Assembly (NCBI GenBank): GCA_016192455.1
Contig: JACPUC010000003.1
Coordinates: forward strand, 124,001-188,000
Direction: 5' to 3'
DNA length: 64,000 bases
Origin: Candidatus Tectimicrobiota bacterium
Lineage (GTDB): Bacteria; JACPUC01
Below the pieces are notes generated by a model. It saw only the letters and a program-made list of their open reading frames with translations. It did not search any database and was not told the DNA's origin. The position numbers and the translations under genes are program-made. Every line of letters starts with the position of its first letter. Position 1 is the first letter of the stretch. Below, piece after piece: positions 2,077 through 63,832 of this stretch.

Positions 2077-2240
2077 GGCGCAGAGACGCTGGAGTGGCGG
2101 CCGCAAGCCAACGCGCCGGCTCCCCGGAACCGCCGGCGCCAGGGCGAGCGCCGGCAGCTTCAGGAAGACCTGCGAGCGTGGTGGAAATGGAAGGAAGGAG
2201 GATGTCCCGAGCCTGGGCGCCTCCTGAGCTTCCGCGAAGG

Positions 2241-2267
2241 AATAAAAAAGCGCCGCTGTCGCGGCGC
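2241..2267 (-). terminator. Rho-independent terminator
   Basis: Minus strand GCGCCGC-gaca-GCGGCGC followed by TTTTTTATT. Confidence 0.8.
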
Positions 2268-2302
2268 CTTATACCTCTCGTTCGAGGTAGGGGTAGCTTC
2301 TC

Positions 2303-2440
2303 TCACCTGCGAGGAAGCGTCACCATGCTCTCTGTTCTGCGAGCACCCTGACCAGCGCTGACATCCACGCCGATCAGGGGGAATAGCTCAACTTGCAGGA
2401 CTCCGTTGAGCAGATGAACCCTCACAGTCCTGTCGTTCAT
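2303..2440 (-). CDS. Possible 45-aa small protein (MNDRTVRVHLLNG...)
   Basis: ATG preceded by purine-rich AAAAGGGGGTG. Lies inside the structured transcript; no recognisable domain. Confidence 0.3.
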   Translation of the reverse strand: MNDRTVRVHLLNGVLQVELFPLIGVDVSAGQGARRTESMVTLPRR

Positions 2441-2550
2441 GCACACCCCCTTTTCTCTGGCACTGGGAAAGCCCCATCTCCAACGGCTTTCCATCACCCA
2501 GACAGTCAACCCAACTCAGCAGGCTTTCCCAGTGCCATTTCTCTACAAGT

Positions 2551-2579
2551 AACCTAGAATCCAGCTTCACTCCCGTCAA
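2551..2579 (-). promoter_or_regulatory. Sigma70-like promoter
   Basis: TTGACG-N17-TAGGTT on the minus strand. Confidence 0.6.
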
Positions 2580-2703: not shown

Positions 2704-2732
2704 TTGCCAAGCGTCCAAGCCCCGGGTATACT
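2704..2732 (+). promoter_or_regulatory. Sigma70-like promoter for the PqqC/CADD-like gene
   Basis: TTGCCA-N17-TATACT. Confidence 0.65.
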
Positions 2733-10822: not shown

Positions 10823-11098
10823 TGGTGGGTCTCGCAAGTTCGCTCATATCTGTGCGGCCCTGCTCGCCGCATCGGCAAGGGGTGTGCGAGGGACCCATGC
10901 TCCCCCACACGCCCATCCCGTAGGGGCGGTTCGCGAACCGCCCCTACAAGCCGGGGCGCGCGAGGAGACACGATTCCTTCCTAGACTGAGGTTGCGGGCG
11001 GGGCAAGCCCCGCCCCTACGATCAGCCCCGGCGGATGCGGGAGGGGAGAAGGTCCTCTCGCGGAATGAGGTGATGGAACTTCGGGGAGACGATACAAG
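10819..11098 (+). mobile_element. REP-containing MITE-like element, copy 2 (longest)
   Basis: Begins CTAGTGGTGGGTCTCGCAAGTTC at the stop codon. Perfect palindrome GTAGGGGCGGTTCGCGAACCGCCCCTAC at 10920-10947 and second REP at 10996-11019. Confidence 0.75.
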
Positions 11099-22398: not shown

Positions 22399-22641
22399 CG
22401 AGTGGTGCGTCCCACAAGTTCGCTTACCTAGTTGCGGCGGTGCTCGCTGTATTGGCAAGGAGCTTGTCAAGGACCCATGCTCCCCCCTACCCCCATCCCG
22501 TAGGGGCGGTTCGCGAACCGCCCTTACAAGGCGGGGTGCGCGAGGGGACAAGGTTCCCTCGCAGACGTAGGCGCCGGGCGGGGCAAGCCCCGCTCCCTAC
22601 GATCCGCTCCTACGGAGCGCGCGGAGGGGACAAGGTCCCCT
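22399..22641 (+). mobile_element. REP-containing MITE-like element, copy 3
   Basis: Colinear with 10819-11060. Starts cGAGTGGTGCGTCCCACAAGTTC, REP at 22500-22527. Right part overlaps the last codons of the Mo subunit gene. Confidence 0.72.
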
Positions 22642-34647: not shown

Positions 34648-34714
34648 GCCCGGCGGCGGGAAAGGTGGCGGCGCGGTGGTGAGTGCAGGCTCGGAACAAG
34701 CGCGAGACGCGGTG

Positions 34715-36526
34715 ATGACGCCTCCGCGGACGCCGCGACGAAGATTGCCGGCAAGCCTCCGCACCATCATCGTGCTGCGGCTCCTCCTGGCGAGCGGCGT
34801 CCTCGGCGCGGTGACGCTGGCCGAGGCGAGCTTCGCCGCCTGGCCGGAGACGGGCGCGCTTCGCCTCCTCATCTCGCTCGCCTACGCCGTGAGCCTGCTC
34901 ACCTACCTGGTGTGGCGCCTGCTGGGCGACCACCCGGCGCTGCCGCCCGCCCAGTTCGCCGCTGATGTCGTCATCATCAGCGGCATCGTCCTGCTGACGG
35001 ACGGCCTGCAGAGCCCCTTCACCTTCCTCTACATCCTCCCCATCATCGGCGCCGGCATGACGCTGCCGCGGCGCATCAGCCAGGCCACCGCCGCGCTCGC
35101 CAGCCTGGGGTATATCGGCGCCGCCTTGAAACTGCCCCTCCTCGGCGCCGCAGGACCGAGCGGCTGGCTCAGCCGCACCATGGCGGGCATCACCGCCGAG
35201 CGGTCGTACCTGCTCTTCTTCCATCTCAGCGCCTTCTTCCTCGTCGCCTTCCTGGGCAGCCACCTCGCCGAGAAACTGAAGGCCCAGCGCCGCGAACTCC
35301 AGGAGACGAGCGACTCCCTGGAAGAACTGCAGGAGCTGCACACGCGCCTCGTCACGAGCATGCGCGTGGGACTCTTCACCTGCGATTGCGACGGCCGCGT
35401 CACCTCCCTCAACCAGGCGGCGGCAACCCTCCTCGGCCACTCCTGGCCACAGGTCCGCGGCCAGAGCTGCGCCACCCTCTTCCCGGGGTTTCCGATCAAG
35501 GACTTCCTGGAAACCCTCTGCGGCCCAGGCGCGGCGGCGACGCCGGCGCAGGCGGCCGCCGGGCGCTTCGTCGAGGGGGAGTTCGAGCACCGAGGGGGGG
35601 CCACCATCAACCTGACCATGAGCCTCTCCCCCCTCCTCCCACCCGGCGGCCACTGCGCCGGCATGGTGGGCATCTTCCAGGAGAGCACCGAGCTGCACAC
35701 GATGCGCCAGCGCCTGGAACGCGCGGACCGGCTGGCGGCCGTCGGGCGCCTGGCGGCGGGCATTGCGCACGAGATCCGCAACCCGTTGGCGTCGCTGAGC
35801 GGCGCGCTCCAGGTGCTGCGCGGCGAGGTGGACCTCGATGCCACGAATGCCCGCCTGCTGGATATCGCCCTGCGCGAGGCCAACCGCCTCAGCACCACGA
35901 TCACCGAATTCCTCACCTATGCCCGCCCGCAGGCGCCGGAACCGCAGCCGTTCGACCTCAACATCCTCGTCAAGGAGACCCTGGAGCTGCTCAGCAACAG
36001 CCCGCAGTACCATCCGGAAATCAGCATCGAGATGGCCTGCGCCCCCCAGCCGGTGGTCGCCGAGGTCGACCTGCACCAACTGCGCCAGGTGCTCTGGAAC
36101 CTCTGCCTGAACGCCTTGCAGGCATTTCCCGCGGAGGGGGGGATGCTGCGCGTCAGCACCGGCGCGAGCGGCGCCGGCGTCGAGGCGGGGCAGACGAGCG
36201 CCGCCCCCCTCGCCCCGGCGCTCCAGGCGCGCGGCGCGCTGGCTGATCCCTACGTCACCTTGACGATCGCGGATACCGGGGTAGGCATTCCGCACGACCT
36301 CCAGCAGCAGGTCTTCGAGCCGTTCTTCAGCACGAAGAGGTATGGCAGCGGCCTGGGGCTGGCCGTCGTGCATCAGATCGTCACCGCGCACCACGGTGAG
36401 ATTTACCTCGACAGCAAGCCCGGCCGGGGCACGCGGTTCCGGATCGTGCTGCCGGCGCGGGCCCCGGCGGGCCTCGGCGCGGCGGGGCCGGCGCCGGCGA
36501 GGGATCGGCGCGCCGCACAGCCTTGA
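34715..36526 (+). CDS. pilS: PilS-like membrane sensor histidine kinase
   Basis: Multi-TM N-terminus (SPFTFLY), PAS, AHEIRNPLAS, NLCLNA, GSGLGL; located between pilC and pilR. Start uncertain. Confidence 0.85.
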   Translation: MTPPRTPRRRLPASLRTIIVLRLLLASGVLGAVTLAEASFAAWPETGALRLLISLAYAVSLLTYLVWRLLGDHPALPPAQFAADVVIISGIVLLTDGLQSPFTFLYILPIIGAGMTLPRRISQATAALASLGYIGAALKLPLLGAAGPSGWLSRTMAGITAERSYLLFFHLSAFFLVAFLGSHLAEKLKAQRRELQETSDSLEELQELHTRLVTSMRVGLFTCDCDGRVTSLNQAAATLLGHSWPQVRGQSCATLFPGFPIKDFLETLCGPGAAATPAQAAAGRFVEGEFEHRGGATINLTMSLSPLLPPGGHCAGMVGIFQESTELHTMRQRLERADRLAAVGRLAAGIAHEIRNPLASLSGALQVLRGEVDLDATNARLLDIALREANRLSTTITEFLTYARPQAPEPQPFDLNILVKETLELLSNSPQYHPEISIEMACAPQPVVAEVDLHQLRQVLWNLCLNALQAFPAEGGMLRVSTGASGAGVEAGQTSAAPLAPALQARGALADPYVTLTIADTGVGIPHDLQQQVFEPFFSTKRYGSGLGLAVVHQIVTAHHGEIYLDSKPGRGTRFRIVLPARAPAGLGAAGPAPARDRRAAQP

Positions 36527-36632
36527 GGCACGGGTTGCCCCAGGGTAGGGAGCGGGCGAGCCCGCCCGCCGCCCGGCGGCTCCTCGCCGCGAAGGAGCGC
36601 GCGCCTCTCCAGTCGTTGCGAAAGCAGAGCCG

Positions 36633-37999
<1,367 letters not shown>

Positions 38000-38003
<4 letters not shown>

Positions 38004-38178
38004 TGTTGCGTCTCACAACGTCGCTGAAAATTTGCCGCGCAACGGCCTACATTTTTTCTCGGGAACCCTCGCTCCCCCACCCCCCCAGTCCCCGTGAGCT
38101 GCGCCGCGGCTCGCGTAGCTGGGGTGCGCGAAGGGACAAGGCCCCTCGCAGAAATTCATGATGTAACTTACACCACAG
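38000..38178 (+). mobile_element. MITE-like element, copy 4 (REP core decayed)
   Basis: Starts CTAGTGTTGCGTCTCACAA at the pilR stop. Shares gctcccccac and ggggtgcgcga.gggacaagg.ccctcgcaga blocks with copy 3. Confidence 0.55.
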
Positions 38179-56452: not shown

Positions 56453-56633
56453 ATCGCATCGATGTCGGAGGGAGCCTCGCCCCCTCGCGCATCCCGACTG
56501 GTAGGGGCGGTTCGCGAACCGCCCCTACGGAACAGGGGGTGTGGGGGAGCAAGGGTCCCCCACAAAAACTTCCCCGCCACATGGCACGAAGAAGGCGTTG
56601 AATGAAGGATGGAACTTGTGCGACGCAGCACGA
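56430..56633 (-). mobile_element. REP-containing MITE-like element, copy 5 (inverted)
   Basis: Left end CTAGTGTCTGTTTCTCAAATT, right end AACTTGTGCGACGCAGCAC (reverse complement matches copy 3 left end). Perfect REP at 56501-56528. Confidence 0.72.
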
Positions 56634-61685: not shown

Positions 61686-61895
61686 GCCGGCTGCAGGCCG
61701 GTCCCGACTTCCCGCGCGGCGGGTCTGAGAGATTCCTGCCGGAATGACGCGCGGCGAGGCGACCCCACCGACCCCAGGCGGGGTGGAGCTCGACCTACGC
61801 GGTCATGACACCCCGATCGCGGCAGGCTGACGGCCGGCGACGTGGACGCGTTCAGCGTGGAACCTGATCTTCAGGGCTTCCGGCTCTCCCCCCCC

Positions 61896-62357
61896 TCAGC
61901 CAGCCCCGCCTTCGTCAACCAGGTAGGCGCCTTGGATGAGGCGCGCCTCCTTGCTCTCGTGCTCGTAGAGGAAGGCAAGGAGCGGCCGCAGGTCCTGGTG
62001 GATCGCCTCCAGGTTCTCCTCGCCGCCGCCTTGAAGCCGCGTCGTAAGCTGGTCGAGCTGGTCCAGGATGCGGAGATGCTCCTTCTTCAGATGAAGGAGC
62101 TTGCGCTCTTCAGTCGGACGCTGCTCCTGGATGTCCTCGAAGAGACCTCGCGGCCCCTCTTCTATGTGGAAGAGGCTCGTGAGGTGCTTCTGCAGGTTCA
62201 GAACCTGCGCCATGGTGCTGGCTCGGCGCGCCGCCGCGTCGTTCGCGCCCCCTCCATCGTCGAGAAGTTTCCCCAACTCCTTCAGCGTCCTCAGCAGATG
62301 TCTATTCTCTTCCAGGAAGCGGCGAGCTAAGGTGTGGCTGGCGCCTTCTCGTGTCAT
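61896..62357 (-). CDS. Hemerythrin-like four-helix protein (degenerate ligands)
   Basis: F..EE...LF..I, L..EH..I, HESKE..LI spacing; GAGGAG RBS. Confidence 0.65.
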   Translation of the reverse strand: MTREGASHTLARRFLEENRHLLRTLKELGKLLDDGGGANDAAARRASTMAQVLNLQKHLTSLFHIEEGPRGLFEDIQEQRPTEERKLLHLKKEHLRILDQLDQLTTRLQGGGEENLEAIHQDLRPLLAFLYEHESKEARLIQGAYLVDEGGAG

Positions 62358-62420
62358 GGCGAGCTCCTCAGTCGTGGGGCTGGTGCCTGGCGTGAGCACG
62401 CCCCCTGTTCGCACATCTGT

Positions 62421-62450
62421 ATTGTATACCTTCATTTTCGAGGCCCGCAA
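62421..62450 (-). promoter_or_regulatory. Sigma70-like promoter for hemerythrin-like gene
   Basis: TTGCGG-N18-TACAAT on minus strand. Confidence 0.45.
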
Positions 62451-62572
62451 CGTCAATCTAGGGGTTGATCCAGCCGGGAGCAGGCGGCGCGGGGCCGGCT
62501 CGCGGGGATCACCCCGCCTGCCCCCCGCTGGCCTCGCGCTTCCCCTCGAAAGCAGGAATTTCTCCGCCATCC

Positions 62573-62643
62573 CTACGAGATGTGGTGGCTTTTCCAGGAT
62601 GGGCCCCCACATATTGTGGAAAAGCTGTGGATTCTGTTGAAAG
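62573..62643. promoter_or_regulatory. Tandem NrdR-like boxes with overlapping DnaA box cluster
   Basis: 16-mers ctaCgAgATgTgGtgg (62573) and cccCcAcATaTtGtgg (62604) are 31 bp apart. TGTGGAAAA (62615) is a consensus DnaA box, followed by two degenerate boxes. Confidence 0.55.
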
Positions 62644-62770
62644 CGCGCCGCTCACCCAGCCCGGCATCGCGACAGTTCGGCGGCGGCGGTTTGGAGGCGG
62701 CCCGGCGGCGGCCAGGTCGAGCGCGGGGCGCGAGTCGGTTGGCGGGGCGCTGCCGTTCTCGGCGATTTCC

Positions 62771-62798
62771 TTGCCGCCCCTGCCAGTCGGGGTATAAT
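62771..62798 (+). promoter_or_regulatory. Sigma70-like promoter
   Basis: TTGCCG-N16-TATAAT. Confidence 0.55.
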
Positions 62799-62872
62799 AG
62801 GGGCGCTGCTGCGTGCGCCGCTGGGCACGGCGCGTTGCTGGACCGCAGCACCGATTGGGGAGGAGGAAAGAG

Positions 62873-63832
62873 ATGGCACGGAGGTTCTCTTTGAGCGCGC
62901 TGTGGGTGATCGCGCTTGCCACCCTGCTGCTGAGCTCGGCGGGTCAAGCGCAGGAGAAGATTGTCTATGGCTCGTCGACCGGCGGAGGCATTCGCCTCGT
63001 CACGGACATCATTAAGGCGCAGCGGCTTGACGAAAAGAACGGCATCGTGCTCGACTTGAAGTACTTTGCCGGCCCCAAGGGGCAGCAAGCCCTGATCCTG
63101 GGCAAGGTCGACGCCACCTACTTCTCACCGTTAACCTCCGCCTTGCAGCTTGCGGAGGGAAATCATTTCGTCAACTTCGAGATCATGATGGACAGCCACA
63201 TCTCCCTGCTGAAGCCGAAAGGCTCGCCGCTCAAATCGCTTGCCGACGTGCGGGGGAAACGTCTCGGCTTCATCCCGCGCACCTCCGCCGCCTACATGAC
63301 GTTTCGCATCCTCAATGCCATGCAAGGCCGGGACGCCGACAAGGATTTCCAGCTCATCGTCGGCAACCCCATGGCGCTGATGGCGTTTATCGCGCGGGGC
63401 GAGGTGGATGCTTCGATTCACTACGAGCCCTTCTCGACCATGCTGCTGGTGAACGGCCAGGCGGAGCAGATCGCCTGGTACGAAGACCTCTGGCGCGAGA
63501 CCACGAAGACGCCGCTGCTCTTCTCCACGCTGGCGGCCAGTCAGTCCTGGATCGACGCGCACCCGAAGGCGGCCCGCACCCTTGCCCGCATCGTCGGCGC
63601 GACGCGCGCCTGGATTGTGGCGCACCCGGACGAAGCCCTCGAGATCGGCCGCAAGGCTCTGGAGATCACCGACCCACGCGTCATCGCGGCGCTGAAGGAA
63701 CGGATGCTGCGTATCTACCGGACGCCCTGGAATGAGAAAGCGCTGGAAGCCGGACGCTGGCAAGTCGAGAAGGCTGTTGAGCTGGGGCTGGTGCCGAAAC
63801 CCACCAAGGAGATTCTCGCCCTCCTCAACTGA
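62873..63832 (+). CDS. NitT/TauT-family (NMT1/SsuA-like) ABC substrate-binding protein
   Basis: Signal peptide, SPLKSLADVRGKRLG, GEVDA...EPF, WIDAHP; GGAGGAGG RBS. Confidence 0.85.
   Translation: MARRFSLSALWVIALATLLLSSAGQAQEKIVYGSSTGGGIRLVTDIIKAQRLDEKNGIVLDLKYFAGPKGQQALILGKVDATYFSPLTSALQLAEGNHFVNFEIMMDSHISLLKPKGSPLKSLADVRGKRLGFIPRTSAAYMTFRILNAMQGRDADKDFQLIVGNPMALMAFIARGEVDASIHYEPFSTMLLVNGQAEQIAWYEDLWRETTKTPLLFSTLAASQSWIDAHPKAARTLARIVGATRAWIVAHPDEALEIGRKALEITDPRVIAALKERMLRIYRTPWNEKALEAGRWQVEKAVELGLVPKPTKEILALLN

Follow-up and report, generated by a model that had tools for sequence, protein, structure and literature searches.

In a Candidatus Binatia-like genome, an intergenic stretch of the minus strand is best explained, tentatively and with slightly less than even confidence on our part, as an orphan, lineage-specific non-coding RNA gene. 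Transcription would start near 2544 from a weak sigma-70-type promoter and, as read in the sequence, would stop at a strong Rho-independent terminator (2247-2270 plus U-tail), yielding an RNA of ~300 nt. The predicted fold of this RNA comprises six back-to-back hairpins and a terminator hairpin, joined by short A/G-rich single-stranded linkers. With low certainty, we suggest that the RNA may act in trans as a regulator, and its first hairpin (P1) probably arose when a small palindromic mobile element inserted at a later stage. All coordinates below refer to the window, i.e. the whole 64-kb stretch of DNA that was analysed.

Genomic setting of the candidate unit

The candidate unit occupies 2241-2579 of the window, within a 782-nt gap that separates a hybrid kinase gene from a TenA/PqqC-like gene:

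ends at 2076, plus strand: PAS-PAS-HisKA-HATPase-REC hybrid kinase gene (Pfam), left of the gap
starts at 2859, plus strand: TenA/THI-4/PqqC-family gene (Pfam), right of the gap
after the TenA-like gene: DUF4178, 3-hydroxyanthranilate dioxygenase (3-HAO) and hydantoinase B genes

The remaining window is ordinary chromosomal DNA; among its genes are mfd, carAB and pyrB and those for an H+-pyrophosphatase and for SurA-like and PilS/PilR-like proteins. Its genuine genes have a GC3 of ~0.8-0.97, and no frame within 2077-2860 has gene-like GC3 periodicity. A Pfam scan of the 44 high-GC3 ORFs of the 64-kb window detected no transposase, CsrA or Hfq domains.

Transcription signals

The two putative transcription signals that delimit the unit are as follows:

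2551-2579, minus strand: candidate sigma-70-type promoter, TTGACG (2579-2574), 17 nt, TAGGTT (2556-2551)
2241-2270, minus strand: intrinsic terminator, hairpin 2247-2270 with 10 pairs (7 G-C), a loop of 4 (GACA) and the U-run UUUUUUAUU

The minus-strand terminator, first recognised in an earlier sequence-only reading of this DNA, is indeed present, contains standard pairs only and is strong, with a U-run; the letters 3' of its hairpin (2270-2247, minus strand) are TTTTTTATT. The 64 kb (67% GC) contain, both strands counted, just 11 runs of at least five T, four of them in intergenic positions, and the most stable preceding hairpin region among these runs is that of the run at 2249(-), at -25.8 kcal/mol. 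The terminator hairpin works in the minus direction only, there being no U-run behind it on the plus strand. Two other T-runs lie directly behind genes (45431+ and 56568-), which indicates that the genome uses such terminators; the one at 2249(-), on the other hand, has no gene to terminate. Since there is no minus-strand gene upstream either, the unit must begin inside the gap. A rare U-run terminator that operates in the minus direction only and serves no ORF argues for a non-coding RNA gene. Against this, terminators under a loose definition are not rare, at 0.9 per shuffle of the region.

The hexamers of the candidate promoter are those given in the sequence-only reading, but they form a weak site that matches 8/12 positions, which likewise counts against an RNA gene, and the site falls under the threshold of a stricter promoter scan. 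Within 2300-2870 it is nevertheless the only relaxed match that the minus strand contains, against ~0.17 expected (0.29 per kb per strand window-wide), and it sits 7 nt ahead of the first structured segment; the transcript start near 2544 is inferred from its position. As a lone and suitably placed match in the gap it lends modest support to the unit. A trans-acting sRNA gene would generally have its own promoter together with a Rho-independent terminator, both on one strand and outside ORFs; here both are found as predicted signals, the promoter being weak. The best promoter-like site of the gap is a different one, TTGCCA-17 nt-TATACT at 2704-2732 (+), with a 10/12 match. It is aimed at the TenA-like gene, which would give that gene a leader of ~120 nt, and is divergent from the candidate RNA.

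Predicted fold and composition

The segments of the predicted minus-strand fold, from the 5' end of the RNA, are:

2458-2537, minus strand: P1, an 80-nt palindromic element with 16-bp perfect terminal inverted repeats TGGCAC...GTGCCA; pair probability 0.99
2379-2450 (RNA 96-167), minus strand: P2, a compound imperfect hairpin, with the same fold in the whole unit and in its middle part
2347-2378, minus strand: P3, a 12-bp hairpin with an 8-nt loop containing GGAUGUCA; mean pair probability 0.87 for the 8-bp core
2325-2346, minus strand: P4, a short hairpin; pair probability 0.99
2292-2324, minus strand: P5, a hairpin; pair probability 1.0 for the 5-bp core
2272-2289, minus strand: P6, a 6-bp hairpin; pair probability 0.97, followed by single-stranded UAUAA

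The minus-strand fold has an energy of -145.5 kcal/mol and a z-score of -8.10 (0 of 100 shuffles as good), compared to -111.3 kcal/mol and -5.15 for the plus strand. The difference persists when the long stem and the terminator are removed: the middle 187 nt have a z-score of -4.11 on the minus strand (0 of 200 shuffles) versus -1.98 on the plus strand (8 of 200). This strand-specific excess of folding supports the interpretation as a non-coding RNA gene. After correction for composition, 2101-2400(-) ranks first among 1276 300-nt windows. G-U pairs account for 18 of the 103 predicted pairs, and the U-G pair noted in the stem 2346/2372, a mismatch on the plus strand, is confirmed, with 8/8 standard pairs on the minus strand versus 7/8 on the plus strand. 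P5 and P4 have a 15-nt stretch in common (12/15 identical).

Seven stems had been proposed from the letters, and all of them consist of standard pairs on the minus strand, but two have a pair probability of 0.0. These two, 2414-2419/2435-2440 and 2386-2392/2405-2411, lose to the compound hairpin 2379-2450, more stable by 9.4 kcal/mol, in which AGUCCUG is the partner of CAGGACU and the UAUUCCC side that of GGGGGUG. P2 is thereby predicted to sequester a Shine-Dalgarno-like GGGGG together with an AUG, with CAGGACU/AGUCCUG as its inner 7-bp helix.

The lower GC content relative to the flanks is borne out, 2301-2600 being, at 0.553, the lowest-GC stretch among 1275 300-nt windows of the 64 kb. The RNA strand is G-rich (G 104, C 67), with the fourth most extreme GC skew among the windows. 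Lowest GC combined with G-richness is an RNA-gene-like composition for a high-GC genome, and this again favours the non-coding RNA gene. Overall, the view of the region as a self-contained ~300-nt structured unit on the minus strand withstands scrutiny as regards strand asymmetry of the fold, G-U pairs, G-richness, terminator and the lack of any Rfam match (see below), and is weakened as regards the promoter.

P1 resembles a small mobile element

The perfect 16-bp stem 2458-2473/2522-2537 was found exactly as described from the letters. As RNA, the P1 stem extends to 17 bp via an added U-G pair on the minus strand and has a small hairpin inside, while an internal 20-nt direct repeat (15/20 identical) permits an alternative short hairpin. 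P1 alone of the window's 25 longest inverted repeats is a 100% complementary pair of at least 16 nt. It is flanked by a direct repeat:

2538-2543, minus strand: upstream copy of GAGAAA, abutting P1
2452-2457, minus strand: downstream copy of GAGAAA, in the A-rich single-stranded linker AGAGAAAA

By chance, two identical 6-mers would abut the element with a probability of ~3e-4, whether calculated from composition or taken empirically at the same spacing; the repeat was noticed after the fact. Terminal inverted repeats plus a target-site duplication are one mark of miniature inverted-repeat transposable elements (MITEs), and P1 has both (a 16/16 repeat, and GAGAAA at both ends); a further mark would be multiple genomic copies along with a parent IS that shares the ends. 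Judged by its sequence, P1 with its GAGAAA repeats looks like a small, palindromic and mobile element, MITE-like in kind. The combination of a perfect 16-bp repeat and a flanking direct repeat suggests an origin as mobile DNA, not as an RNA helix shaped by selection, and to that extent counts against a non-coding RNA gene.

Some miniature inverted-repeat elements, such as the Correia elements of Neisseria, ERIC and RUP, form RNA hairpins when co-transcribed. P1, an 80-bp unit, shares with them the terminal inverted repeats (in P1 16 bp, perfect, with TG...CA ends) and the flanking direct repeat, and likewise sits inside a (candidate) transcription unit. Unlike them, P1 is single copy in the 64 kb and absent from 80 related loci: the 16-nt arm (at most 2 mismatches) has no second copy in 871,247 bases (the 64-kb window plus the 80 loci). 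A match to the arm ends in one of these loci (L078, 12321-12370) is ordinary coding sequence by appearance and was rejected as a chance match. The P1 element has no match in plasmids, in phages or, by full-text literature search, in published text, and we know of no cognate transposase. A sigma-54 promoter inside P1 (TGGCAC-7 nt-GC) was also considered and dismissed, with four such sites versus 4.9 expected. As a separate observation, the region 34676-38000 (+) carries, next to a T2SS-F/PilC-like gene, the genes of a PilS-like kinase and of a PilR/NtrC-type, sigma-54-dependent response regulator; the presence of this pair in the window suggests that the organism probably uses sigma-54.

Alternatively, the whole low-GC stretch might be a relic of mobile or foreign DNA, a MITE-like palindrome with decayed sequence beside it, without a functional product of its own, its terminator halting stray transcription that runs from the divergent promoter region toward the convergent kinase gene. 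The inverted and direct repeats of P1 fit such an origin, as do the lowest GC of the window and the sharp composition borders of the low-GC stretch. Moreover, the genome holds other palindromic repeats (the three REP-like copies described below), no homologue was found wherever searched, and synteny is not kept in relatives. We nevertheless consider this unlikely, given that the part outside palindrome and terminator folds strand-specifically (z -4.11), that no second arm exists in the 871,247 bases, and that neither a transposase domain among the 44 high-GC3 ORFs nor any plasmid or phage similarity was detected. The MITE-like hairpin would matter only if it belonged to a multi-copy element that seeds hairpins into transcripts.

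The other palindromic repeats of the window are three copies of a perfect 28-bp palindrome, GTAGGGGCGGTTCGCGAACCGCCCCTAC, at 10920-10947, 22500-22527 and 56501-56528 (0, 1 and 0 mismatches, respectively). The palindrome begins with GTAG and looks like a REP-type element, its copies fall on fold outliers detected when the window was scanned, and its first 14 nt are present in 0/80 related loci.

A 45-codon open reading frame within the unit

The sequestered AUG of P2 opens a short reading frame:

2303-2440, minus strand: candidate 45-codon ORF, ATG at 2440, TGA at 2303-2305, AAGGGGG 5 nt upstream; coding doubtful

The unit could accordingly be read as the mRNA of a small protein, consisting of promoter, SD leader, 45-codon ORF and terminator, in which an 80-bp MITE-like insertion has split the leader and the remaining fold is incidental or controls translation. 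Several properties fit. AAGGGGG lies at a suitable 5 nt before the ATG at 2440, and the terminator with the last small hairpin follows ~30 nt beyond the stop. Removing P1 and one GAGAAA leaves TAGGTT-7 nt-GAGAAAAGGGGGTGTGC-ATG, a normal short leader, and the abutting 6-nt repeat that would mark such an insertion has the low chance probability given above. In addition, the GC1 of the ORF exceeds its GC2 as in real genes (GC1/2/3 0.67/0.42/0.64), and the range of phase periodicity is 0.32 in 2341-2460. The SD-like sequence, the ATG, the 45-codon frame and GC1 > GC2 must therefore be counted against a non-coding RNA.

The codon usage, however, is not that of the genome: a GC3 of 0.64 compares with ~0.8-0.97 for genes of the window, and the ORF uses the rare codons AGG, AGA and CTA. 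The 45-residue peptide has 0 matches at E<=0.001 among 1,835,955,588 representative proteins (phmmer, with a reach of close relatives only), no word-sharing candidate among 5.8 billion clusters and no Pfam match. The exact 45- and 68-residue sequences are missing from a 15-billion-protein collection in which the product of the neighbouring gene is present. Its ESM Atlas recognition of 1548 is below 2300, and AF2 with single-sequence input gives a mean pLDDT of 59.2 and a pTM of 0.31. Finally, the favoured fold places both the SD-like sequence and the AUG in paired positions. Neither the codon usage of the genome nor homologues with protein-like substitutions, the two marks of a genuine small protein, are thus found for this ORF, and a small-protein mRNA seems to us improbable. 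The failure of the coding signs (no GC3 periodicity, an ORF GC3 of 0.64 and no peptide homologues) in turn supports a non-coding RNA gene.

The idea of a dual-function RNA, also raised by the sequence-only reading, retains the SD-like sequence, the ATG and the 45-codon ORF, but lacks the genomic codon signature, homologues and recognition by the language model. SgrS/SgrT, RNAIII/hld and SR1/SR1P are dual-function sRNAs, and the candidate likewise combines a structured RNA with a short ORF and a ribosome-binding-site-like sequence; compared with these, the case for translation here consists of an SD-like sequence, an ATG and an open frame.

On the opposite strand, a purine-rich tract, GGAAATGGAAGGAAGGAGG, directly precedes an ATG at 2202 (tract plus ATG ~2183-2204, plus strand). 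A 49-codon, very basic ORF within 2183-2351 (+) is antisense to the terminator and the 3' hairpins of the candidate RNA. Read on the minus strand, the same purine tract is a run of CCUCCUUCC just past the terminator. Such an arrangement recalls a type I toxin-antitoxin-like locus, in which a structured mRNA for a small toxic peptide is overlapped by an antisense RNA: a small ORF with a sequestered SD-like sequence sits in a highly folded RNA, and the plus-strand tract, ATG and 49-codon ORF are antisense to its 3' part. We regard this as very unlikely, since no hydrophobic stretch able to span a membrane is present in the 45-residue peptide (N, Q, E and D interrupt its most hydrophobic run), which also has no homologues, and since the 49-codon ORF, besides being very basic, has no codon signature. 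The plus-strand promoter-like sites, moreover, are 2532-2560 and 2704-2732 only, both to the right of that ORF and pointing away from it.

The unit does not resemble a CsrB/Rsm-type sponge

CsrB/Rsm sponges carry many GGA (A-N-GGA) motifs exposed in loops and have an upstream GacA/UvrY palindrome. The sequence-only reading had proposed a CsrB/RsmY-type RNA on the basis of five GGA sites; these lie where it placed them, but a sixth exists in the long stem (plus-strand TCC at 2527). A sponge of the CsrB/RsmY/RsmZ type, sequestering a CsrA/RsmA-family protein via GGA in hairpin loops, would share with the candidate the hairpin array of a few hundred nt that closes with a terminator, and a hybrid sensor kinase gene adjoins the unit. 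The MFE fold leaves two of the six sites mostly unpaired, and two fit A-N-GGA. The motif is not enriched, though: six GGA compare with 8.73 +/- 2.19 in 300 dinucleotide shuffles, 94% of which have at least six, and the two mostly unpaired sites compare with 3.03 +/- 1.48 expected. No k-mer of 4-7 nt recurs beyond chance in the unit. Csr/Rsm covariance models give no match in 2000-2900 even at E<=10. A GacA/UvrY box-like site is not found near the unit, the motif matching with at most 3 mismatches at 38155 and 58031 only, versus 2.87 matches expected. No Hpt domain was found in the neighbouring kinase (PAS-PAS-HisKA-HATPase-REC). That no CsrA domain occurs in the 44 high-GC3 ORFs is of little weight for the genome as a whole. 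With GGA neither enriched nor mostly unpaired, and with no repeated motif, Rfam match or activating box, the candidate differs from CsrB, RsmX, RsmY and RsmZ in just those features that characterise them, and the earlier proposal is highly improbable.

Relatives and known RNA families

The candidate RNA fits no curated RNA family and nothing in print. An Rfam search, suggested as a check by the sequence-only reading, gave 0 matches at gathering score in the whole 64-kb window, so that the novelty relative to curated families stands. At E<=10 there are seven matches in 2000-2900, all to eukaryotic or viral families (best E 0.15). ARAGORN found 0 tRNA or tmRNA genes. Together, these null results agree with the earlier view that the RNA is not tmRNA, RNase P, SRP or 6S. 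No paper on regulatory RNAs of the class Binatia, nor one linking Binatota with CsrA, came up in full-text searches.

Relatives of the TenA-like protein (67-76% identity) gave 80 loci, almost all from Candidatus Binatia MAGs, for comparison; on this basis the class Binatia is the most likely source of the window. Gene order around the TenA-like gene varies: the kinase, DUF4178 and 3-HAO neighbours adjoin it in 0/80 loci, and a distant hydantoinase-B-like match lies several kb off in 20/80. In these 80 Binatia loci the best blastn match to the RNA has an E of 0.23 over 21 nt, and nhmmer finds none at E<=10. A single-sequence covariance model of P2-P4, searched against 871,247 bases, recovers only itself (163 bits), the next matches having E values of 2.5 and 8.7. 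In distant mode there is no plasmid or phage match to the RNA, and the window contains no paralogues. The lack of a homologue in the 80 loci, plasmids and phages counts against a non-coding RNA gene, in a test that is weak because the loci share only the TenA-like gene and not its neighbourhood. Two further null results point in the same direction: no C/U-rich single-stranded seed is visible in the predicted fold, and pairing with the TenA start region is not outstanding, the duplex being weaker than 94% of 300 control windows.

Among known classes, the nearest likeness is to Hfq-type sRNAs, whose 3' module consists of a hairpin, an AU-rich spacer, a terminator hairpin and a U-tail. The predicted 3' end of the candidate (hairpin, UAUAA spacer, terminator and U-tail) resembles this module. 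Like the candidate, stand-alone intergenic sRNAs of the Hfq type have a promoter-like site, a position convergent with a neighbouring gene, the 3' module and low GC, and they are conserved in narrow lineages, to which the candidate may likewise be confined. Unlike most of them, the candidate is longer (~300 nt), nearly all base-paired by prediction, and without an obvious C/U-rich seed.

On sequence grounds, then, the candidate belongs to a familiar type, that of lineage-specific candidate sRNAs predicted from a single sequence. A bolder proposal, which we regard as possible but doubtful, would make it the founding member of a Binatia-specific family of ~300-nt multi-hairpin regulatory RNAs without kinship to the curated families, either binding protein via stacked helices or acting in a dual capacity with the 45-residue peptide, with a captured mobile palindrome as the 5' hairpin. 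If verified, the RNA would provide a first handle on post-transcriptional control in the uncultured Binatia, a widespread lineage of soil and sediment. Its current value is that of a target for transcriptome mapping rather than a discovery, as a single-sequence prediction like many candidate sRNAs.

A second stretch of atypical composition

Elsewhere in the window, 61686-62800 and 62901-63200 form a large stretch without a high-GC3 ORF, with a GC of 0.58-0.63 and moderately strong folding (z-score about -2.5). A reading frame of atypical composition seems to be present on its minus strand, and a strong plus-strand promoter-like site, TTGCCG-16 nt-TATAAT, is present at 62771-62798.
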